In this document: piece after piece, positions 11,005 to 63,387 of the stretch
Layout: each line of letters begins with the position of its first letter
Position numbering within the stretch: position 1 is the stretch's first letter
Assembly: GCA_028704015.1 (NCBI GenBank)
Contig: JAQVLT010000006.1
Span: 10,102 to 74,101 of the forward strand
Reading direction: 5' to 3'
Length of the DNA: 64,000 nucleotides
Source of the DNA: Patescibacteria group bacterium
GTDB lineage: Bacteria; Patescibacteriota; Patescibacteriia; Patescibacteriales; JAQVLT01
Made by a program: the position numbers and the translations under genes
Notes under the pieces: model-generated
What the model was told of the DNA's origin: nothing
The model's input: only the letters and a program-made list of their open reading frames with translations
The model's database searches: none

Positions 11005-11610
11005 CGCCCAGCCATAAATGGCCGAGCTACGTTCTTCCGCAAGCCCCATTAATGGGGCTTTGATTTTCTAGCCCAATCCGTTTACGGTTGGGCGATTGGG
11101 ATATATTCCAATATTTTTATAATATTATTTTCACCGTGATGTTTATTTTGATTCTGAATATAACTTTTAATAAATGGCGTCCCATTACTGCTTAAAGTTA
11201 AACCTCCAAATCCTTGTTGCCATTGGATGTATTTTTCTCCAAATATATTATTAATCTCGTGCGCGCTATATCCCTTTATTTGACCAACAAAATCCGATAA
11301 ACTAATTTGTGGCGGGACAGAACATAATAAGTGACAATGATCTAAATAGCTATTGAATTCAATTACTTTACTGCCCAAATTTTCACTTTTTCCGCAAATC
11401 AACCTACTTAATTTTTTGCTTATCTCCTCATCAATCAATCTCTGTCTATTTTTTGTACACCAAATTATATGGTAATATAATTTATAAAAATTATGTGGCA
11501 TATTTTTTCCTTTCACGCCGCCCAGCCATAAATGGCCGGGCTACATTTTTCCGTAAGCCCCATTAATGGGGCTTTTATTTTTATTAGCCCAATCCGTTTA
11601 CGGTTGGGCG
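11005..11610 (-). mobile_element. IS200/IS605-like unit: Y1 transposase gene bracketed by two about 90 bp triple-hairpin repeats in direct orientation
   Basis: Repeats at 11005-11094 and 11519-11610 are near-identical. Each holds three hairpins (GCCCAGCCATAAATGGCCGGGC, AAGCCCCATTAATGGGGCTT, GCCCAATCCGTTTACGGTTGGGC). Confidence 0.75.
11082..11516 (-). CDS. IS200/IS605-family Y1 (HUH) transposase TnpA, RAYT-like
   Basis: 144 aa. YHIIWCTKNR N-terminus, HUH motif DHCHLL, and C-terminal catalytic Tyr context SYIQNQ. The last codons lie inside the flanking repeat. Confidence 0.85.
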   Translation of the reverse strand: MKGKNMPHNFYKLYYHIIWCTKNRQRLIDEEISKKLSRLICGKSENLGSKVIEFNSYLDHCHLLCSVPPQISLSDFVGQIKGYSAHEINNIFGEKYIQWQQGFGGLTLSSNGTPFIKSYIQNQNKHHGENNIIKILEYIPIAQP

Positions 11611-15052: not shown

Positions 15053-15089
15053 ACCTCTTAGTTGTATGTTATATGTTTCGCGCTATGCG

Positions 15090-15542
15090 TTACGCAATTT
15101 TATACGGCGACTCCGGATCTTTTTCCCAACGAATTTCATCAATCTCTTCTTTTTTTCCTTCGCCGCGATAAAGTTTGTCGGGCAAATTGATTGATAATGC
15201 GTCCTTATCGCCTACACATTTGTATCCGTGCACTACTCCCGGCGGCACAAAAACCGCGGCCGGATTATTCTCGCCAAAAACTTCTTTAAAATATTCTCCC
15301 TTGGTTTCCGAATCTTCGCGCCGATCCCAAAGATGCAGTTCAAAACTTCCCGGACCGACAAAAACAAAACAATCAGTCTGTTCTTTGTGTTCATGCGGAC
15401 CGCGAACTACTCCTGGTTTGGTAATACTAACATAAGACATGGCCGGTTGATATTTATCTTCATCAGCGCGATAAATTTCCGCCAGCCAACCGCGCTCATC
15501 TTCAAATTTATTTAATTTTTTAATTATTACGTCTTTGATCAT
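15090..15542 (-). CDS. cupin, dTDP-4-dehydrorhamnose 3,5-epimerase-like
   Basis: 150 aa. FEDERGWLAEIY and RGPHEH motifs resemble the RmlC/WxcM cupin family. It is shorter than canonical RmlC. Confidence 0.6.
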   Translation of the reverse strand: MIKDVIIKKLNKFEDERGWLAEIYRADEDKYQPAMSYVSITKPGVVRGPHEHKEQTDCFVFVGPGSFELHLWDRREDSETKGEYFKEVFGENNPAAVFVPPGVVHGYKCVGDKDALSINLPDKLYRGEGKKEEIDEIRWEKDPESPYKIA

Positions 15543-27672: not shown

Positions 27673-27820
27673 GCAAAATGGCCTTAAAAATCTAAAAATC
27701 TAAAAATCTAAAAAATTTTAGCTAACATTAAATAAAATATAAACTAAAAAATATTAGTAAATTTGACAAAAAAATCTCTCCGCCGATTTATACACAGCCG
27801 ATCTAACATAATAAAATGTA

Positions 27821-27955
27821 ATTGTTAATTGTTAATTGTTAATTGTTAATTGTTAATTGTTAATTGTTAATTGTTAATTGTTAATTGTTAATTGTTAATT
27901 GTTAATTGTTAATTGTTAATTGTTAATTGTTAATTGTTAATTGTTCTCTTACCAC
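27821..27955. repeat. tandem octamer AATTGTTA x about 17
   Basis: Perfect head-to-tail repeats read directly. They overlap the last codons and the stop of the Mur-ligase gene (..LTINN*). Confidence 0.95.
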
Positions 27956-29329
27956 CCTTCTATCATCCCAAGGAATTTTCTCGCCATTAGCCACGCAAAT
28001 CGCCTGCTCGCTCCCCTTGCCGGTAATCAAAACAATATCGCCGGTTTCGGCCAAAGACAAAGCTTTTTTAATCGCTTCGCGACGATCCAAAATATTAAAA
28101 AGGTTTTCATTCTTCTTTTTTCCCGCGTGTTCGGCGCCAACTTCCACTTGATCAATGATAATTTGCGGATCGTCATCGTAAGGATCTTCGTTGGTTACAA
28201 TAACATAATCGGCATTGGCGCCGGCAACTTTTCCCAATATCGGCCGGCGCGCCACATCACGTCCCCCGCCCGCCGAACCCAGGACATGAATAATTTTATT
28301 GTGCGGAATAAATTTTACCGTCTCATACAATTTTTCCACTGCCTTTGGCTCAAAAGCGTAATCAACAATAACAACGAATTTTTGCCCCTCATCAATCTTC
28401 TCCAACCTACCGGGAATTCCCGAGACGCTTTCCAAACCTAATTTTATTTTTTCTCGCGCTATTTCCTGCGCTTCGCCCACGCAATACGCCGCCATGGCAT
28501 TTGTCGCGTTAAATTCACCGAGCAGCTGCAAAGCAATTTTATTATCCCCAACTTGAAAACTTGTACCCTTTTCGGACGCAACAATATCACTGTACTCAAT
28601 TATTTTAATATTACTAAATAAATCTTGTTTCTTGTTTCTTGTTTCTTGTTTCTTTGCATAGCCATATTTTTCTTCCGCCCAAAAATCCAAAAAATATTCC
28701 GCGTTATCGTCATCCAAATTGGCAATGATGGTTTTTTTAACGCGCTTCAAATCTAATTTACGAATATTGCTTAGCCCTGTATGCACCGCTCTATTGTCGT
28801 CGGCGTATTTTGTTTTGCATCGTTTCAGATGAGCGAACAATTCACCCTTGGTTTTCTTGTAATTAAGAAAGCTGCCATGCGATTCAATATGCTCCGGATA
28901 CAAACCGGGAAAAACCAAAATATCATAATTAATAAAACGGTGGCGATATTGCCTAATACCTTCGGAAGTAGTTTCGATAATCGCGTACTGGCAGCCGTTC
29001 TTGATCATTTTGCGTAAAATTCCCTGGGTGAAAAATCTGCCCATCATGGTCATTTTTTTATCATTCAGCCATTCTTTATTTCCATCACCGAACATTGCCG
29101 TGGAAGTATAGCCGACTTTGTAGCCGGAATTCGCAAACATCTTAGCGACCAAATAAGTGATCGTGGTTTTTCCGGTGGTGCCAGTCACGCCGATAACAAT
29201 TAAATTATCACTCGGCCAGCGATAAACGACCGAAGCAATCCAACTCATTAGAAAATGATAGACCGGCTGGAGCGCTTTGAATAGTTTTCTGGGTAGTAAT
29301 TTTTTAATTTTAACTAATATTTTATCCAT
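27923..29329 (-). CDS. Mur ligase family protein (MurE-like)
   Basis: 468 aa with P-loop GVTGTTGKTT and Mur ligase middle and C-terminal domain patterns. It contains a CTTGTTT x4 tandem at 28624-28651. Confidence 0.7.
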   Translation of the reverse strand: MDKILVKIKKLLPRKLFKALQPVYHFLMSWIASVVYRWPSDNLIVIGVTGTTGKTTITYLVAKMFANSGYKVGYTSTAMFGDGNKEWLNDKKMTMMGRFFTQGILRKMIKNGCQYAIIETTSEGIRQYRHRFINYDILVFPGLYPEHIESHGSFLNYKKTKGELFAHLKRCKTKYADDNRAVHTGLSNIRKLDLKRVKKTIIANLDDDNAEYFLDFWAEEKYGYAKKQETRNKKQDLFSNIKIIEYSDIVASEKGTSFQVGDNKIALQLLGEFNATNAMAAYCVGEAQEIAREKIKLGLESVSGIPGRLEKIDEGQKFVVIVDYAFEPKAVEKLYETVKFIPHNKIIHVLGSAGGGRDVARRPILGKVAGANADYVIVTNEDPYDDDPQIIIDQVEVGAEHAGKKKNENLFNILDRREAIKKALSLAETGDIVLITGKGSEQAICVANGEKIPWDDRRVVREQLTINN

Positions 29330-29426: not shown

Positions 29427-29447
29427 TCTGCCTGCCGGCAGGCAGGA
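29427..29447. repeat. GC-rich palindrome family member (TCTGCCTGCCGGCAGGCAGGA)
   Basis: Hairpin between the FemAB-family gene end and the Mur ligase start, flanked by AT-rich inverted words (ATAATTTCTAAT / ATTAGAAATTGT). Confidence 0.85.
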
Positions 29448-29469: not shown

Positions 29470-30546
29470 TTAAACGGCTCTCCTTATTTTTCTCAACAAC
29501 CCGTAAATTCCATACCATCCTCTACTAAACACCGCGTCAAACGTCCCCGGATAATCATATTCAAATCCGGCGAAGCCTTTTTTGAACCGCGTTACGCCCG
29601 GCCATTTCGTTTCGCTGATACCATAAAAATCATAATATTTATAACCCAACTCTTTGGCTAATTTAATGCAGTGCCATTGCAAGGCGTATGGCGCCATTAA
29701 ATTTCTGAATTCGTTGGAAGACGCACCGTGCATATAAGTAACCGTGTCGCCAAAAAACGCCACAATATTTCCGGAAATTATTTTCCCTTGATACTTCGCG
29801 AGAAATAATTTTACATTTAATTCAGAATTTGTAATTCGTAACCTGCCTGCCGGTAGGCAAGGTTGATAATTCGTAATTGATAATTGCTTTTGATAATATT
29901 CTTTCTCATGTAATCTAAATTTATCGCGTGTCTTGGTTTGCTCCATGATCTTCCACCACTCATCAAAATCAGCGCTCCCCTCTCCTTGAGCTTTGTCCTC
30001 CCTCCTTACGAAGGAGGGAGATAGAGGGAGGTCCTGGGGTGAGGTTATTATCTCAATTCCCTTTTTCTCCGCCAACCGGATATTATATCTCGTCTTTTCA
30101 TGCATATCTTTCAATAATTCTTCCTCGGACTTAGACAAATCAAGAAGTAAAGTTTTAGATGGCTGAATGTCAATTGTGCGCGTAACGCGTAACGCATAAC
30201 GCGTAACGTCAAATGTTGGCTCAAAACGTAAAAAAATAATTTTCTCTTTCTTAGCTTTTTTATTAATTTCATTAAAGAAAAAAGTTATATGTTCTACGTT
30301 ATGCGTTATGCGAAAGATTGGTCCGCGTGGCGAATACCAATACTTCATTCCGAGCGGCAATCGCTTCTCAATTAAAGTCGCAGCCGCCATGAACTCTCCT
30401 TTATCTTCTACGCCAAAACGCAAAACTTTATTCCCCGCGCTTGCCTGAAATTCACCCCATTCATAGGACTCCAAAAACGCGCTATGCTCCTCGGCACTTA
30501 CAAATTTATTCAATTCTTCTTTATTTTTTATTTCAACTAAATTCAT
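29470..30546 (-). CDS. FemAB-family peptidoglycan interpeptide-bridge aminoacyltransferase
   Basis: 358 aa with the N-terminus ...FLESYEWGEFQ and the C-terminal GVTRFKKGFAG pattern. It carries at least 4 in-frame repeat-derived inserts (see findings). Confidence 0.7.
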   Translation of the reverse strand: MNLVEIKNKEELNKFVSAEEHSAFLESYEWGEFQASAGNKVLRFGVEDKGEFMAAATLIEKRLPLGMKYWYSPRGPIFRITHNVEHITFFFNEINKKAKKEKIIFLRFEPTFDVTRYALRVTRTIDIQPSKTLLLDLSKSEEELLKDMHEKTRYNIRLAEKKGIEIITSPQDLPLSPSFVRREDKAQGEGSADFDEWWKIMEQTKTRDKFRLHEKEYYQKQLSITNYQPCLPAGRLRITNSELNVKLFLAKYQGKIISGNIVAFFGDTVTYMHGASSNEFRNLMAPYALQWHCIKLAKELGYKYYDFYGISETKWPGVTRFKKGFAGFEYDYPGTFDAVFSRGWYGIYGLLRKIRRAV

Positions 30547-32007: not shown

Positions 32008-32186
32008 GTTCCGCCGAAATCGCTCGCTTACGCTCGCTCCTTTTCGGCGGAACGGCTTCGGAATCCTTCCTCGTCCCGCTCAGTCGCTCGCTCACGCTCG
32101 CGACATCGCGGAACTCGGAATACGCGAAATTGCCTTTCGTCCCGAAGCGTCGGGACTCCGGCAACTTCGCTTATTCCGAAGCCGTT
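32008..32186 (+). repeat. 179-bp GC-rich ORF-less element, copy E1 (at the attI-like junction)
   Basis: GTTCCGCCGAAA...TTTCGGCGGAAC hairpin, then a GGCTTCGGAAT...ATTCCGAAGCC long stem, bounded by GTT on both sides. Identical to E2 and E3 by eye. Confidence 0.95.
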
Positions 32187-32290
32187 ATACGCCATAATAA
32201 AAAGCCTCTTTTATTTTTAGTAATAATTTTGGCAATTTATTTTGTGAGGTCGACGTATAATTTTTTAAGTAATATTAATTAACAAAAAAT

Positions 32291-32631: not shown

Positions 32632-32833
32632 GCGTATAACAACGCATATCTGGCTACGGAAATTGTGCATTAATAGAAACCTTGAGGTGGCACAATTTCC
32701 TCCGCCCAAATCCCGCACTAATTTTTGTGGGATTTGGATGGAGTTAAGCATTTAAAGAAGTTTGCATTAATTTATTGCTTGTTTAAGAAACAACGAAAAA
32801 TTAGCGCGGGACTTCAGATGATGCGTAAACGTT
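32632..32833 (+). other. attC-like site 1
   Basis: GCGTATAAC-AA-CGCATATCTGG ... CTTCAGATGATGCG-TAAAC-GTT. Confidence 0.65.
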
Positions 32834-33009
32834 CCGCCGAAATCGCTCGCTTACGCTCGCTCCTTTTCGGCGGAACGGCTTCGGAATCCTTCCTCGTCCC
32901 GCTCAGTCGCTCGCTCACGCTCGCGACATCGCGGAACTCGGAATACGCGAAATTGCCTTTCGTCCCGAAGCGTCGGGACTCCGGCAACTTCGCTTATTCC
33001 GAAGCCGTT
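32831..33009 (+). repeat. 179-bp element copy E2
   Basis: Identical to E1 by eye. It starts at the GTT of attC-like site 1. Confidence 0.95.
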
Positions 33010-33089
33010 AGGCGACATATTTTAAAAACGATTCCAAAAACTTTTTTTATCGCCTTCGGCGATTTGGGGGCGAAAACTTTTTTTATTTT

Positions 33090-35250: not shown

Positions 35251-35348
35251 GTCGCCTAACAACCGATATCCGGTTCGGGGCTCAGCTCGCCCCTCTCCCA
35301 TATTTTTGCTCCCGTTGGTCGCAAAAACATCGGATATCGCGAAACGTT
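35251..35348 (+). other. attC-like site 2
   Basis: GTCGCCTAAC-AA-CCGATATCCGG ... CATCGGATATCG-CGAAAC-GTT. Its R'' is the exact reverse complement of GTTAGGCGAC at 33007. Confidence 0.7.
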
Positions 35349-35524
35349 CCGCCGAAATCGCTCGCTTACGCTCGCTCCTTTTCGGCGGAACGGCTTCGGA
35401 ATCCTTCCTCGTCCCGCTCAGTCGCTCGCTCACGCTCGCGACATCGCGGAACTCGGAATACGCGAAATTGCCTTTCGTCCCGAAGCGTCGGGACTCCGGC
35501 AACTTCGCTTATTCCGAAGCCGTT
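35346..35524 (+). repeat. 179-bp element copy E3
   Basis: Identical to E1 by eye. Confidence 0.95.
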
Positions 35525-35544
35525 ATATGACATTTTAAAAAAAT

Positions 35545-35938: not shown

Positions 35939-36058
35939 TCATATAACAAAGAATATCTGGTTCAAGAATTTTTCTTGTTAATGTATAAGGAGTAAAAATT
36001 CTTTCACCCAAATTTTATTTCACTACGTTCAATAAAACTTCAGATATTCTTATACGTT
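35939..36058 (+). other. attC-like site 3
   Basis: TCATATAAC-AAA-GAATATCTGG ... TTCAGATATTC-TTATAC-GTT. Confidence 0.65.
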
Positions 36059-36232
36059 CCGCCGAAATCGCTCGCTTACGCTCGCTCCTTTTCGGCGGAA
36101 CGGCTTCGGAATCCTTCCTCGTCCCGCTCAGTCGCTCGCAAGCTCGCGACATCGCGGAACTCGGAATACGCGAAATTGCCTTTCGTCCCGAAGCGTCGGG
36201 ACTCCGGCAACTTCGCTTATTCCGAAGCCGTT
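36056..36232 (+). repeat. 177-bp element copy E4 (short variant GCTCGCAAGCTCGC)
   Basis: Same as E1 except for a 2-nt shorter inner hairpin. Confidence 0.95.
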
Positions 36233-36376
36233 AGCTGAAATATATATTTTTCTTTTGCCCTGCGGGGCAACTCTTAAAAAGAATTCAATTTTTGTTTTTT
36301 TATTAATTAGAAAGGGGTAATAAGTGTTTTCTTCGCTACGCTACAAAAACGATTTATTAATTAATCCAAAAAATAT

Positions 36377-39954: not shown

Positions 39955-40054
39955 TCAGCTAACACGGCATATCCGGTTGCGGCTTTTATACAAAAGCCTA
40001 CACCCACATTTGCCTCCGCTACGCTACGGCAAACATCAGATATGCCGAAACGTT
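39955..40054 (+). other. attC-like site 4
   Basis: TCAGCTAAC-AC-GGCATATCCGG ... CATCAGATATGCC-GAAAC-GTT. Its R'' is the reverse complement of GTTAGCTGA at 36230. Confidence 0.7.
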
Positions 40055-40228
40055 CCGCCGAAATCGCTCGCTTACGCTCGCTCCTTTTCGGCGGAACGGC
40101 TTCGGAATCCTTCCTCGTCCCGCTCAGTCGCTCGCAAGCTCGCGACATCGCGGAACTCGGAATACGCGAAATTGCCTTTCGTCCCGAAGCGTCGGGACTC
40201 CGGCAACTTCGCTTATTCCGAAGCCGTT
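40052..40228 (+). repeat. 177-bp element copy E5 (short variant)
   Basis: Identical to E4 by eye. Confidence 0.95.
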
Positions 40229-40420
40229 ATACGCAATTCAAAAAATATTTTTCTTTTAATAAGGAATTTTGACAGGCTTTTTAAAAAGGGGAATAAATTT
40301 GTTTTTTTATTTATTAGAAAGGGGTAATATTGTGTTTTTTCTGCTTTTGGAGGCGCAGAAAAAACGATTTACTTACAAGGGGAAAACGGGTACTATACAA
40401 TTACTTATTAGGAATAAACT

Positions 40421-47879: not shown

Positions 47880-48005
47880 GCGTATAACACGGCATAATCT
47901 GGTTCCAGAATTTTTCATTAACAGTTAATAATAAGGAGTAAAAAATTCTTACACCCATATTTGCCTCCGCTACGCTACGGCAAACATCAGATATGCCGAT
48001 ACGTT
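47880..48005 (+). other. attC-like site 5
   Basis: GCGTATAAC-AC-GGCATAATCTGG ... CATCAGATATGCC-GATAC-GTT. Its R'' is the reverse complement of GTTATACGC at 40226. Confidence 0.7.
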
Positions 48006-48181
48006 CCGCCGAAATCGCTCGCTTACGCTCGCTCCTTTTCGGCGGAACGGCTTCGGAATCCTTCCTCGTCCCGCTCAGTCGCTCGCTCACGCTCGCGACA
48101 TCGCGGAACTCGGAATACGCGAAATTGCCTTTCGTCCCGAAGCGTCGGGACTCCGGCAACTTCGCTTATCCCGAAGCCGTT
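48003..48181 (+). repeat. 179-bp element copy E6
   Basis: As E1 with one substitution (TTATCCCGAAG). Confidence 0.95.
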
Positions 48182-48219
48182 AGACGAAATTTTTCAAAGC
48201 TACTAACAAAAATGAATAT

Positions 48220-48999: not shown

Positions 49000-49121
49000 T
49001 CCGATAACACGGCATATCCAGCTCGGACTTTTCCGAAAGTCCTCACGCAAATTTTTGTTTCTCTTTACTTTATAATAAATAAAGGTGGAGAAACAAAATC
49101 TTCGGATGATGCCGAAACGTT
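49000..49121 (+). other. attC-like site 7
   Basis: TCCGATAAC-AC-GGCATATCC ... GGATGATGCC-GAAAC-GTT. Its R'' is the reverse complement of GTTATCGGA at 48593. Confidence 0.7.
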
Positions 49122-49315
49122 CCGCCGAAATCGCTCGCTTACGCCTGCCTACCGGCAGGCAGGCTCGCTCTTTTTCGGCGGAACGGCTTCGGAATTCTTC
49201 CTCGTCCCGCTCAGTCGCTCGCAAGCTCGCGACATCGCGTAACTCGGAATAAGCGAAATTGCCTTTCGTCCCGAAGCGTCGGGACTCCGGCAACTTCGCT
49301 TATTCCGAAGCCGTT
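49119..49315 (+). repeat. 197-bp element copy E7 (divergent; carries a nested GC-rich palindrome)
   Basis: Short variant with several substitutions. CCTGCCTACCGGCAGGCAGG (49143-49164) is inserted in the first hairpin loop. Confidence 0.95.
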
Positions 49316-49349
49316 GTACGAAATATCATTCACCTTTAATTCGTAAAAT

Positions 49350-54455: not shown

Positions 54456-54496
54456 AAACGTAGTATAAAGTAAAAAGGTAAAAATTAAAAGACTTT

Positions 54497-55846
54497 CTAC
54501 TTTCTACTTTCTACTTTTCGCCTCAGTACGCTGTATTCCGGCACGCTCTCGCCGACCTCCAAAATCACTGTTTGGCCGCCGCTACCGCCGTGCGCTTCGC
54601 TAATTTCCTTATTATTTTTAATATCAACCAATTTTTCCACCCTCATTTTTATTATATCATAAAACGGCCGGACAATCTCAATCTCATCCCCCACTTTTAC
54701 GGTATTGTGTACTTTAACTAAAATTCTGTTACGTGCTATGTGATATGTGCTATGTGAAATAACTTGTCCGCAAAACTCCCATTTACTCGACTGATGTGAC
54801 AGCTTTAGCTCTTGGTCCGCCTTGCCACCCAAAAGAAAGCCGGTAGTATAACCGCGATGCACTAATTTTTTATCCAATTCATTATAAAAATAATCCAAAT
54901 CTTTTTTTGTTATGTGTTTTATGTTATGTGTTACGTGAGAATAAATTCCATTAACCATCGCCTCATAATAAACGCTCTTGGCCCGCCCTTCGATTTTAAA
55001 GCTAGTTACACCGGCGTCAACTAATTTATCCAAATATTTTATCAAACATAAATCTTTTGAATTCAAAATATAACTTCCATGCTCCTCTTCCACAATCTCC
55101 AAGGGCTGATCAAATCTTTTTTCTTCTGCAATAAAATATTCTTTACTTTCTACTTTCAACTTCTTGTCCGCCGAAGCTTTAGCGAAGGCAGATCTACTTT
55201 CAACTCCGTAAGGCCACCGGCATGGCTGTGTGCAATCGCCTAAATTAGCGCTCCGATCATTAAAATATTTAGAAAGAAAACAACGTCCCGAATATGCCAT
55301 ACACATCGCGCCATGGACAAAATATTCCAATTCCATTTCCGGCGCGCGCCGATGAATTTCTTTAATTTCATCAAGCGTCGTTTCCCGGCCCAAGATAATC
55401 CTCTTTACTCCGGCTTTCCGCCAAAATTTAACCGCCTGCCAATTTGTGCAATTCGCCTGCGTGGAAAGATGAATTTCGCAAGCCGGCCATATTTTTTTTG
55501 CCAAAACTAAAACTCCAGGGTCAGAAATAATTAAGGCGTCAACTTTTATCTTTTTAAGCTCTTTTAAATAAGGCGGCAATTTATCAAGATGTTTGTTGTG
55601 CGCAAAAATATTTATTGTCACATAAACTTTCTTGCCTAATTCATGGGCATATTTCACCGCCTCTTTCACTCCGGCTAAATCAAAATCATTAATCCGCACA
55701 CGCAAAGAAAAATCAGGAATGCCCAGATAAATCGCGTCGGCGCCAAAAGCGAAAGCGGTTTTCATTTTTTCCAAATTCCCTGCTGGTGCGAGTAACTCAA
55801 TTTTTTTTATTTTTAATTTTTTCATAATAACCTCGTTAAAAAACAC
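54497..55846 (-). CDS. U32 family peptidase
   Basis: N-terminal ELLAPAGN..AFAFGADAIYLG pattern. The likely start is Met 55825. It contains two in-frame GTTAYGT heptad arrays. Confidence 0.8.
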   Translation of the reverse strand: MFFNEVIMKKLKIKKIELLAPAGNLEKMKTAFAFGADAIYLGIPDFSLRVRINDFDLAGVKEAVKYAHELGKKVYVTINIFAHNKHLDKLPPYLKELKKIKVDALIISDPGVLVLAKKIWPACEIHLSTQANCTNWQAVKFWRKAGVKRIILGRETTLDEIKEIHRRAPEMELEYFVHGAMCMAYSGRCFLSKYFNDRSANLGDCTQPCRWPYGVESRSAFAKASADKKLKVESKEYFIAEEKRFDQPLEIVEEEHGSYILNSKDLCLIKYLDKLVDAGVTSFKIEGRAKSVYYEAMVNGIYSHVTHNIKHITKKDLDYFYNELDKKLVHRGYTTGFLLGGKADQELKLSHQSSKWEFCGQVISHSTYHIARNRILVKVHNTVKVGDEIEIVRPFYDIIKMRVEKLVDIKNNKEISEAHGGSGGQTVILEVGESVPEYSVLRRKVESRK

Positions 55847-61192: not shown

Positions 61193-61235
61193 CCCTGCCT
61201 GCCGCCTGCCTGTCCGGTAGGCAGGGCAGGCAGGT
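61193..61235. repeat. GC-rich palindrome family member (double-length)
   Basis: CCCTGCCTGCCGCCTGCCTGTCCGGTAGGCAGGGCAGGCAGGT. Confidence 0.85.
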
Positions 61236-61240
61236 TAAAT

Positions 61241-61810
61241 CTAAAATTTCACCGCTGGTGCATTTTCCGCTCCGGCAGCCGCTTCAAAATATGCTTTTTC
61301 ATTAAAGCCAAACCAACCAGCAAGAATATTCGCCGGCACGCGTTTGATCATAGTATTGAATGCCTGAACTTGATCATTAAATCTTTTTCTTTCTACACTG
61401 ACTCTGTTTTCCGTGCCTTCCAATTGCGCCATTAAAGTCTGGACAGTATCAACCGATTTTAATTGCGGATAATTTTCCATAACCACTAGCAATCTTGACA
61501 ATGCGCCCTCAACTTCTGTCGCCGCTTCTGCTTTTTCATTTACAGTCGCAGCGCCGGCATAACGAGTACGCGCTTCGGCTAAATCTCCAAAAACTTTAGT
61601 TTCCTGCGCCATTGCGCCCTTTACTGATTCTACTAAATTTGGAATTAAATCAAAACGCCTTTGATATTGCGTTTCTACCTGCGCCCATTGACCGGTAACT
61701 GCCTGATCAGCGGCAACCATTTTGTTATAAACGCTCCAAGCGTAGATGCCCACGACAACAACGAGGGCAAAAATGATAATAAGAGCTTTTTTCATAAAAC
61801 TTTTTCGCAT
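61241..61810 (-). CDS. lemA: LemA family protein
   Basis: 189 aa with N-terminal TM and the QYQRRFDLIPNLV and ENRVSVERKRFN motifs. Confidence 0.9.
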   Translation of the reverse strand: MRKSFMKKALIIIFALVVVVGIYAWSVYNKMVAADQAVTGQWAQVETQYQRRFDLIPNLVESVKGAMAQETKVFGDLAEARTRYAGAATVNEKAEAATEVEGALSRLLVVMENYPQLKSVDTVQTLMAQLEGTENRVSVERKRFNDQVQAFNTMIKRVPANILAGWFGFNEKAYFEAAAGAENAPAVKF

Positions 61811-61876
61811 AACGCGTAACGTAAAACGTATAACGCATTATGAAAATTTTTAATTTTGTAATTTTTAAATAATATC

Positions 61877-62238: not shown

Positions 62239-63387
62239 TTAATTGATAACCTGCCTGCCGGTAGGCAAGGTTTTTAGTTGAAAATTAACTTCCCTACCTC
62301 TCGCTTTCGGCGCATGATAACCAGCGAGGAGACAAGCGGACTTTAAAATTTCTTCTTCGCTTTTATTCTCACTTAATTTTAAATTTTCTATATTTAGCTC
62401 CTTCGGAATTTGTAATTTAAAATTTGATAATTCATTTAAAACCTGCCTGCCCTGCCTGCCGGACAGGCAGGCGGTAGGCAAGGTTGAAAATTGAAAATTG
62501 AAAATTCTAACAACAGTCAGCGGTCCTACTTCGTTCTTTAATTCTACCACAATATCTCCCTTTTTTGCCAATTTTTCTAATGCTTCATTATCTCTTTTAT
62601 CTCTACCCACTATAATTAATATATATTTTTTATCCATCTTTGCCCAAAAAGGCCGTCCATATTTAAGCAACTCTACATCTTTAGGCCCACACTCCGGCCA
62701 ATTCTTTATCATCTCTCGTAATTTATCACAAAATTGCGCTTCAGTTAGCAAACATCCGCCAGCAGGAGCAGGATATTTTTTGATGCCAAATTTTTTTGCG
62801 AGTTTCATCTGCCTTTCCCGGCCGCGGCCTTCAATGTCCAATAATTTTTTTCTGTTTATCAAGCCTATTTTTTCATAAATTGTCTCTGGCAATAATTTCG
62901 CGGAAAGTGGACGCAAAACTTCCACCCCGGCTAATTTTTCCACTCGTCCAAGCGACTGTTTATTTTGCGACATCGGACGCTGGCCCAAAACTTCACCCGT
63001 AGCAATAACCTCTCCCGCCCCCTCTCTCCTGCCTCTCCCCGACTCGCTATCGCTCGTCACCCCTCTCCTAATTAGGAGAGGGGTCGGGGGAGAGGTGAGG
63101 ACGGACGCTTTTTTTATCATGAACGCATGGCAATCAATACAAGGATTTAGACATTTGCCATGTCCACACTTGGGATTTTTTACTATTTCCAAAAGTTCTT
63201 TACTAATATTAATAACTTCCAATGGAACTTTAAGTTCTTCAACCGCTTCACGCGCTTTATTGGCGTTAAAAAAATTACTCTCAAAAGCAACCGCGGTCAC
63301 ATCAATTCCTTGCGCTTGTAAAATTTTTACCGCGAGCATTGAGTCCAATCCGCCGGATAATAAAACTAGAGCTTTAATCTTTTTCAT
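62239..63387 (-). CDS. PP-loop ATP pyrophosphatase (ThiI/MnmA-like tRNA thiolation-type) carrying three in-frame repeat inserts
   Basis: N-terminal SGGLDS PP-loop and CIDCH Cys pair. Inserts lie at 62248-62272, 62441-62485 and 63009-63100. Confidence 0.6.
   Translation of the reverse strand: MKKIKALVLLSGGLDSMLAVKILQAQGIDVTAVAFESNFFNANKAREAVEELKVPLEVINISKELLEIVKNPKCGHGKCLNPCIDCHAFMIKKASVLTSPPTPLLIRRGVTSDSESGRGRREGAGEVIATGEVLGQRPMSQNKQSLGRVEKLAGVEVLRPLSAKLLPETIYEKIGLINRKKLLDIEGRGRERQMKLAKKFGIKKYPAPAGGCLLTEAQFCDKLREMIKNWPECGPKDVELLKYGRPFWAKMDKKYILIIVGRDKRDNEALEKLAKKGDIVVELKNEVGPLTVVRIFNFQFSTLPTACLSGRQGRQVLNELSNFKLQIPKELNIENLKLSENKSEEEILKSACLLAGYHAPKARGREVNFQLKTLPTGRQVIN

Follow-up and report, generated by a model that had tools for sequence, protein, structure and literature searches.

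A FemAB-family gene (lipid II / peptidoglycan bridge aminoacyl-transferase type) of a Patescibacteria group bacterium contains four segments that were probably written by DNA repeats and not by selection on the protein, with the encoded peptides being a passive read-out of the DNA. The gene lies on the minus strand at 29470..30546 of a 64,000-nucleotide stretch of contig JAQVLT010000006.1 (GenBank assembly GCA_028704015.1), which is referred to in full as the window. The organism is an ultra-small bacterium and the encoded protein is a cell-wall enzyme. Comparison with orthologues and with other copies of the repeats demonstrated the repeat origin of the segments, their intact frame, their location in hot spots, the polarity of insertion and the concerted change of repeat units. 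The loop peptides are regarded as a passive read-out because tandem arrays change in concert and palindromes arrive by insertion.

The proposed process would involve at least three kinds of short repeat that this genome appears to share with many other Patescibacteria: (i) tandem arrays of 7-nucleotide (nt) units, termed heptamer arrays, (ii) a GC-rich palindrome of 20-21 nt (CCTGCCTRCCGGYAGGCAGG), which would be added into existing sequence, frequently within heptamer arrays, and (iii) longer nested CT/GA-rich palindromes. Arrays would evolve by concerted change of their units and palindromes would come by insertion. Within genes, repeats would survive only if their length keeps the frame and the fold tolerates the site. 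In FemAB the tolerant sites would be five variable loops or linkers (R1 to R5), four of them filled in the window gene. R1 and R2 consist of heptamer arrays of normal linker length, read as 7-residue-periodic peptides; R3 would have received a 72-nt palindrome insert; and R4 would first have held an expanded heptamer array, to which a 21-nt palindrome was added later.

The FemAB-family gene and its product

The gene is an intact open reading frame (ORF) of 358 amino acids (aa) that hosts all four repeat segments. Its product has both features that define the family, namely a match to the Pfam FemAB profile (PF02388, E 2.7e-50) and a tandem GNAT-like FemX fold. The AlphaFold model (mean predicted local distance difference test score, pLDDT, 84.7) adopts the FemX fold, and its best Protein Data Bank match by Foldseek is FemX 6snr (E 2e-22, template-modelling score, TM, 0.77); profile comparison likewise matched 6snr, 1lrz and 1ne9. 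Homologues are numerous (6124 at E<=1e-10) and typically 320-330 aa long, compared with 358 aa here. Homology to orthologues runs from end to end with the frame unbroken, and one protein from a Patescibacteria metagenome-assembled genome (MAG) is 100% identical to the product. Furthermore, the DNA of the gene is 100% identical across three independent assemblies of the same organism (NCBI MAG GCA_028707515.1 and two Logan assemblies), and the repeats are therefore not an assembly artefact.

Repeat segments within the gene

Alignment with 31 close homologues delimited R1 to R4 as indel-rich, poorly conserved regions holding the four segments. A first-pass annotation, made from the letters alone, had already placed four repeat segments in this gene; they were found where it put them, with coordinates off by 1-7 nt at most, the quoted translations correct, and the frame kept through all four in an intact ORF. 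All lie on the minus strand. The core of segment 1 is a 21-nt GC-rich palindrome, CCTGCCTGCCGGTAGGCAAGG, at 29842..29862, translated PCLPAGR (aa 229-235). It is surrounded by the R4 heptamer array of AATTNNN units (29819..29898, aa 217-243) in the layout ...(AATTATC)AA[21-nt palindrome]TTACG(AATTACA)..., with the palindrome interrupting a single heptamer unit, split into AA and TTACG, and with AATTCGTAA on either side (29833-29841 and 29868-29876). Segment 2, in loop R3, is a 72-nt nested CT/GA-rich palindrome at 29974..30045, translated SPQDLPLSPSFVRREDKAQGEGS (aa 168-192). Its GC content is 0.61 compared with 0.40 for the gene, and its core hairpin, CTCCCTCCTT/AAGGAGGGAG, lies at 29998-30020.

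Segments 3 and 4 are heptamer arrays. Segment 3 (R2, 30178..30210) reads (GTTACGC)(GTTATGC)(GTTACGC)(GTTACGC) and is translated VTRYALRVTR (aa 113-123). Segment 4 (R1, 30284..30312) reads (CGCATAA)(CGCATAA)(CGTAGAA)(CATATAA) on the coding strand and is translated RITHNVEHIT (aa 79-88); its unit is the reverse complement of the segment 3 unit. The arrays in FemAB are imperfect, never having more than two identical neighbouring units.

All four segments lie in variable loops or linkers of the FemAB fold. Segments 1 and 2 are predicted to be coil of low confidence: residues 227-238, which include the segment 1 palindrome, and residues 172-189, within segment 2, are modelled as coil with a pLDDT below 50 and no secondary structure. 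R2 is a linker of moderate model confidence, and the first residues of helix H84-100, which is predicted with confidence, fall within R1. A third low-confidence stretch of the model (312-320) is a conserved loop unrelated to the repeats. When set against solved structures, R4 coincides exactly with the site of the ~55-residue coiled-coil arm in S. aureus FemA/FemX, and R2 is likewise an indel site.

The segments could in principle be intervening sequences that are removed from RNA or protein, leaving a mature enzyme without them, as their palindromic or repetitive nature and the dispensability of segments 1 and 2 in orthologues might suggest. This is scarcely credible. No family reached threshold in an Rfam scan of the whole window, and thus no known intron or other RNA element explains the segments, which are also far below intein size. 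The frame is kept throughout all of them, a constraint needed only under translation, and the overlap of R1 with a predicted helix also speaks against removal.

Orthologue comparison and recurrent hot spots

Orthologue DNA was taken from 80 species representatives and eight further homologue loci, and region statistics were calculated over 76 orthologues. Locus L001 has genes for integrase, FemAB, Mur ligase, rpoB and rpoC in synteny with the window, and its FemAB protein is 64% identical. At R1, L001 has (CACATAA)x4 in place of the mixed units of the window, and at R2 it has (GTTACGC)(GTTGTGC)(GTTACGT)(GTTACGC). At R4 it has an unbroken (AATTACG)x4, where the window array is split by the 21-nt palindrome, so the palindrome of segment 1 sits within a unit of a pre-existing array. 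At R3, the 72-nt insert of the window is absent from L001, as it is from L083, L084 and L085; segment 2 is, judging by these alignments, a lineage-specific insert in loop R3.

Region lengths separate the segments in the same manner. R1 and R2 have median lengths of 14 aa each across orthologues and measure 14 aa and 13 aa in the window, whereas R3 (median 8 aa) and R4 (median 9 aa) measure 28 aa and 25 aa. Segments 1 and 2 are thus in expanded loops, while segments 3 and 4 add no length. The earlier suggestion that the segments might be lineage-specific insertions therefore holds for segments 1 and 2, given the expanded loops and an L001 that has neither the palindrome nor the R3 insert. It does not hold for segments 3 and 4, which occupy linkers of normal length that are heptamer-coded, with other units, in many orthologues.

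Heptamer coding of these linkers is specific to them. Self-identity at lag 7 reached the threshold (>=0.55) at R1 in seven orthologues, at R2 in 13 and at six control blocks in none, and no other lag was comparable. The units vary by species (ATTTCCA, AATTGAA, GAGTTAC and ATTGGAA, among others). A 7-residue-periodic R2 peptide is present in most of the 120 closest homologues (e.g., FKIQNSKFKIKP, FPISNFQFPIFK and LRITNYELRIIK), since a 7-nt unit is read in three frames and repeats in protein only every 21 nt (3 x 7 nt). Modules of heptamers, 21 nt and heptamers again were seen at R1 in two loci, L030 and L007, and at R2 in L002. R5, between RFKKGF and YPGTFD, is a fifth hot spot that is empty in the window gene. 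In three other species it holds a CTGCC...GGCAG palindrome, with the peptides FLPASRQD (L004, 2185-2202), FLPSQQAG (L028, 3823-3841) and FLPRRQAG (L041, 828-842).

Insertion and concerted change at the DNA level

The polarity of palindrome insertion was established from a 190-nt repeat present in seven copies in the window. Six copies are empty, and a single one holds a precise 20-nt palindrome insertion (filled site at 49143..49164), with an ambiguity of at most 2 nt and no target-site duplication. Copies are 97-99% identical except for the insertion-bearing one (86% with the gap counted). The GC-rich repeat lies at 32008-32200, 32831-33019, 35346-35533, 36056-36233, 40052-40237, 48003-48186 and 49119-49320, and contains the hairpin GTCCCGAAGCGTCGGGAC. 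Its copies are dispersed among genes of a defence island at ~32-48 kb (DpnI, Shedu SduA_C, EcoRI-type methylase, GmrSD, and AAA ATPase with subtilase), and several small ORFs called over it are probably spurious.

Concerted change of heptamer units was observed at R2 of L084, where the units are GTTACGG GTTATGG GTTACGG. In three units a G has replaced the C at position 7, so that the peptide reads VTGYGLRVMR instead of VTRYALRVTR.

Beyond this genome, the exact 20-mer palindrome was found in at least 120 metagenomic contigs, whose median GC content is 0.43. Heptamer flanks accompany 13 of 83 metagenomic copies, 18 of the 83 lie within long stop-free frames, and many top longer hairpins or nest within themselves. 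The palindrome's placement suggests that it inserts at hairpin tips or palindrome centres. Nesting in its own copy (CCTGCCTGCC[palindrome]GGCAGGCAGG) occurs in the window at 61205-61234 and 62442-62471 and in L134, L135, L139 and L141, and the palindrome crowns longer unrelated hairpins in L108, L114 and L100.

Two further interpretations of the palindrome and its flanks were discarded. Heptamer flanks were considered as target-site duplications made by the palindrome; this was ruled out by the filled/empty pair, which lacks a duplication, and by the L001 array, which exists without a palindrome. The observation that palindromes sit in phase with the heptamers was dropped as independent evidence, given that it follows automatically from 21 = 3 x 7.

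These observations also bear on whether the segments are ordinary protein loops, with DNA patterns that arose by coincidence or because selection on the protein favoured repeated peptides. Segments of equal length are indeed present at R1 and R2 of orthologues, and a loose alternating hydrophobic pattern is common to R2 peptides. However, selection on protein would yield a 21-nt periodicity and not three near-identical 7-nt units in three frames, and lag 7 is confined to R1 and R2. The units of the segments recur between genes and within unrelated ones, copies of the palindrome lie in non-coding DNA and on the metagenomic contigs described above, and concerted change at one unit position in L084 contradicts this explanation directly. 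It is therefore very improbable. Coincidental codon patterns, which the first-pass annotation had named as the outcome that would overturn its proposal, are excluded on the same grounds: among the 76 orthologues period 7 is found in these regions only, units change in concert, and the same DNA families lie between genes and in unrelated genes.

Repeat families across the window

Period 7 was dominant in a windowed lag self-similarity test against shuffled sequence, with 13 lag-7 regions compared with 0.2 in shuffles; other lags gave 0-4, and lag 14 is a harmonic of lag 7. GC-rich hairpins number 42 in the window and 11-13 in shuffles. The palindrome pattern occurs at six sites, compared with 0.00 in 100 shuffles, and the two nested variants at 61205-61234 and 62442-62471 bring the family to eight. 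Short intergenic spacers are mostly degenerate heptamer arrays, sometimes with a central palindrome. The repeat families had initially been described as otherwise intergenic, which is not the case: ORFs contain roughly half of all lag-7 bases as well as several copies of the palindrome.

Segments 1, 3 and 4 were all matched elsewhere in the window. For segment 1, an identical 21-nt palindrome lies at 62250..62270 on the minus strand, at the C-terminal end of ORF 62239-63387 (PP-loop ATPase-like), where it is translated LPTGRQ and has heptamer flanks; a 39-nt match of 92% identity covers the segment 1 palindrome and its flank at this copy. A non-coding copy, TCTGCCTGCCGGCAGGCAGG, lies at 29427..29446 in the spacer between FemAB and the Mur ligase gene, with degenerate heptamer flanks, and the corresponding spacer of L001 is without a palindrome. 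Segments 3 and 4 match 61803-61834 and 15079-15095. The first of these is a copy of the GTTAYGC heptamer family that spans the start of the LemA gene and is, over 32 nt, 90.6% identical to segment 4.

Nearest to segment 2 within the window is a 94-nt nested CT/GA-rich palindrome at 63009..63102 on the minus strand, in frame in ORF 62239-63387 (..SPPTPLLIRRGVTS..). Its build is common to segment 2 and to inserts in FemAB genes of other species, and its 24-nt core, CCCCTCTCCTAATTAGGAGAGGGG (63060-63083), is identical to the R2 insert in the FemAB gene of P0111 (L089). In addition, R2 of the P0033 FemAB gene carries CACCCCCAGCCCCTCCTTAGTAAGGAGGGG, which is near the segment 2 core. The family link was obtained from homologue peptides; a regular-expression scan of all loci for CT/GA palindromes gave five weak matches only.

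Several other genes of the window carry in-frame repeats. ORF 62239-63387 (minus strand) contains the 94-nt nested palindrome, the self-nested palindrome at 62442-62471, heptamers at 62478-62512 and the C-terminal 21-nt palindrome. The U32 peptidase ORF at 54497-55846 (minus strand) has heptamer arrays in frame at 54727-54760 and 54488-54523, the second of which provides the C-terminus and the stop codon. Its peptide VTHNIKHIT is nearly that of FemAB (RITHNVEHIT), both being derived from the CACATAA/CGCATAA unit family. The Mur ligase gene has an in-frame array, (AAACAAG)x4.6, at 28623..28654 on the minus strand, translated KKQETRNKKQ in a variable linker. The two Logan contigs of this organism (L087 and L088) both end at window position 28625, within this array, which is probably a break of the k-mer graph at a 32-nt perfect repeat and not biology. 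Elsewhere, a hairpin set (GCCCAGCCATAAATGGCCGGGC, AAGCCCCATTAATGGGGCTT and GCCCAATCCGTTTACGGTTGGGC, at 11041-11093 and 11520-11609) is duplicated on either side of ORF 11082-11516.

Where the Mur ligase gene ends, 18 perfect copies of TAATTGT (27819-27945) form an array that overlaps the stop codon (C-terminus ..QLTINN*). In the NCBI assembly of the same organism this array has ~50 copies (L086, 8236-8589), and its length is either unstable or unresolved. The matching Mur ligase end of L001 (3686-3793) has ~15 copies of the unit ACAATTA, beside a FemAB gene that is only 69% identical in nt.

The difference of 18 and ~50 copies between assemblies, together with a unit length of 7 that is not a multiple of 3, raises the question of phase variation, whereby the gain or loss of units would shift the frame and switch FemAB off and on. 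For the FemAB segments this seems a very remote prospect. Their arrays are imperfect and identical in three assemblies, which is not the make-up of a contingency locus, and R2 is stable across genomes with FemAB proteins 54-64% identical. The variable TAATTGT array itself lies at and beyond the Mur ligase stop codon, and its copy number leaves the protein unaltered.

Possible nucleotide-level constraint on the R1 and R2 arrays

Another explanation, compatible with loops written by repeats, is that the segments are functional nucleic-acid elements under nucleotide-level selection, acting as an R1:R2 mRNA stem or as arrays of sites for a DNA-binding protein, with the peptide as a by-product. We consider it unlikely. 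It draws on the pairing of the two arrays (30284-30312 and 30178-30210), which flank 73 nt of conserved coding sequence. The predicted R1:R2 mRNA duplex of the window has an energy of -26.7 kcal/mol (z = -6.6), and R1 and R2 of L084 form their own pair at -32.6 kcal/mol compared with -18.5 to -21.8 for cross pairs. Values of z below -3 were found in 5 of 76 orthologues; however, most orthologues have unrelated units without R1:R2 complementarity, and the median z is -0.1. L083 retains the R2 array without an R1 partner. In L001, the sense strand can pair only with A-C mismatches, and pairing is stronger on the antisense strand (-44.3 vs -25.2 kcal/mol). The lack of any Rfam match in the window also weighs against this explanation.

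Conservation of the DNA gives further reason to consider such selection. The R2 DNA is kept in four genomes, with rare GC-rich codons, GTTAYGC arrays are also found in spacers of distant genomes, and the perfect array that follows the Mur ligase gene is made of the unit ACAATTA and stands at the same place in both the window and L001.

Several observations weigh against loops that are nothing but a passive read-out. Between the window and L001, R2 has an nt identity of 94% and a third-position identity of 91% (10/11), compared with 69% and 51% gene-wide; our own binomial estimate, taking 0.51 as the background, is p ~0.007 for the 10 identical third positions out of 11, in a synonymous-site test based on 11 codons. 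R1 and R2 are built from inverted copies of one unit, and in L084 they covary, with CGC changed to CCC in each array, an outcome that gene conversion between inverted arrays could also yield. Third-position conservation of R2 and R1:R2 covariation are hints of a DNA or RNA constraint. We infer translation of the segments from the intact frame and the conserved flanks, and the segments would be tolerated passengers, not useful parts of the protein. As to the repeat families, the initial claim that every segment is a family copy falls short at segment 2, for which no second DNA-level copy was found in the window and whose assignment rests on shared build and short shared cores. Palindrome copies measure 21 nt within ORFs and 20 nt elsewhere, a contrast that is drawn from five copies, and no transposase or other mobilising enzyme was seen among the window ORFs scanned.

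Implications

If the loops were indeed written by DNA repeats, genome-wide repeats and not protein selection would dictate some of the residues of a conserved cell-wall enzyme of ultra-small bacteria, with the same FemAB loops repeatedly rewritten in separate lineages. For annotation, this would offer a simple explanation of odd low-complexity loops and length variation in Patescibacteria proteins, and repeat-derived peptides such as LPxGRQ, FKIQNSK and ITHNxxH should not be taken for motifs. The palindrome, being widespread, with clear filled and empty sites and no known mobilising enzyme, is a target for the discovery of a new mobility or repair mechanism.

A broader proposal is that heptamers, the 20-21-nt palindrome and nested CT/GA palindromes form one undescribed repeat system across the phylum Patescibacteria, spread and homogenised by machinery of its own and serving a function at the nucleotide level even in essential genes. 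This is a speculative extension that we rate as rather doubtful; if true, processes at the DNA level would keep rewriting the loops of conserved enzymes.

Comparison with known repeat systems

Rickettsia palindromic elements (RPEs), to which the segments had first been likened, are palindromic repeats that lie in frame within conserved genes unrelated to one another, at sites judged to suit the fold (PMC10969869). They are ~150 bp long and comprise ten families, each encoding a conserved peptide (PMC10969869). Segments 1 and 2 resemble them as in-frame palindromic insertions that are absent from syntenic L001 and compatible with the fold, and to this extent the likeness stands. Unlike RPEs, the FemAB repeats consist of 7-nt units and of palindromes of 20-21 nt and 72 nt, occur in a different phylum, and in two of four segments add no length. 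By the published description of RPE size and conserved peptide they are not members of that group, and the resemblance would be an analogy of outcome.

Short GC-rich palindromes with many dispersed, mainly intergenic copies are also known as repetitive extragenic palindromes (REP) and REPIN (PMC3116915; PMC3733652). The palindrome described here is similarly short, GC-rich and dispersed, with six sites and two nested variants in the window and at least 120 metagenomic contigs, but several of its copies lie in reading frames. REP/REPIN palindromes have a GTAG or CGTC tetranucleotide at one end; here GTAG occurs only within the 3' arm of the G-T variant, not at the head, and is absent from the perfect variant. 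No gene resembling the REP-associated tyrosine transposases (RAYT; Y1 transposase) that mobilise such elements was found among the 21 window ORFs scanned against Pfam, in 64 kb of the genome. A miniature inverted-repeat transposable element, defined by terminal inverted repeats and a target-site duplication, was also considered and rejected: the filled/empty pair is without a duplication and the heptamer flanks are pre-existing.

In Borg proteins, fast-evolving tandem DNA repeats create disordered segments (PMC9879509). They are an analogue of the FemAB case, in which fast-evolving tandem repeats likewise give rise to new protein segments. Unlike in Borgs, the 7-nt unit is not a multiple of three and is read in all frames, giving a 7-residue period, and it is found in bacterial housekeeping enzymes that are conserved.

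In build, the repeats come closest to those of heterocyst-forming cyanobacteria, in which Elhai et al. 2008 (Genome Res 18:1484) reportedly described abundant 7-nt tandem arrays (short tandemly repeated repetitive sequences, STRR) and small dispersed repeats (SDR). The SDR are said to be 21-27 nt long, capable of forming hairpins, often inside heptamer arrays and sometimes in genes. The abundance of 7-nt tandem arrays in the window parallels STRR (13 lag-7 regions vs 0.2 expected), and 21 nt between in-phase heptamers, as in R4 of the window gene, R2 of L002 and R1 of L030 and L007, parallels SDR. The cyanobacterial repeats belong to another phylum and probably differ in sequence; the likeness is one of build. 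The FemAB repeats are assigned to neither RPEs nor STRR/SDR, and what sets them apart from the latter is their recurrence, shown here, in the same FemAB loops of many species. Searches of the literature for heptamer, tandem or palindromic repeats in Patescibacteria or the Candidate Phyla Radiation returned nothing relevant. The kind of event is thus known, and this variant is, as far as we found, undescribed for Patescibacteria. It is set apart by arrays of 7-nt units that pass through all three frames, an apparently phylum-wide palindrome of 20-21 nt and the repeated colonisation of five loops of one enzyme.

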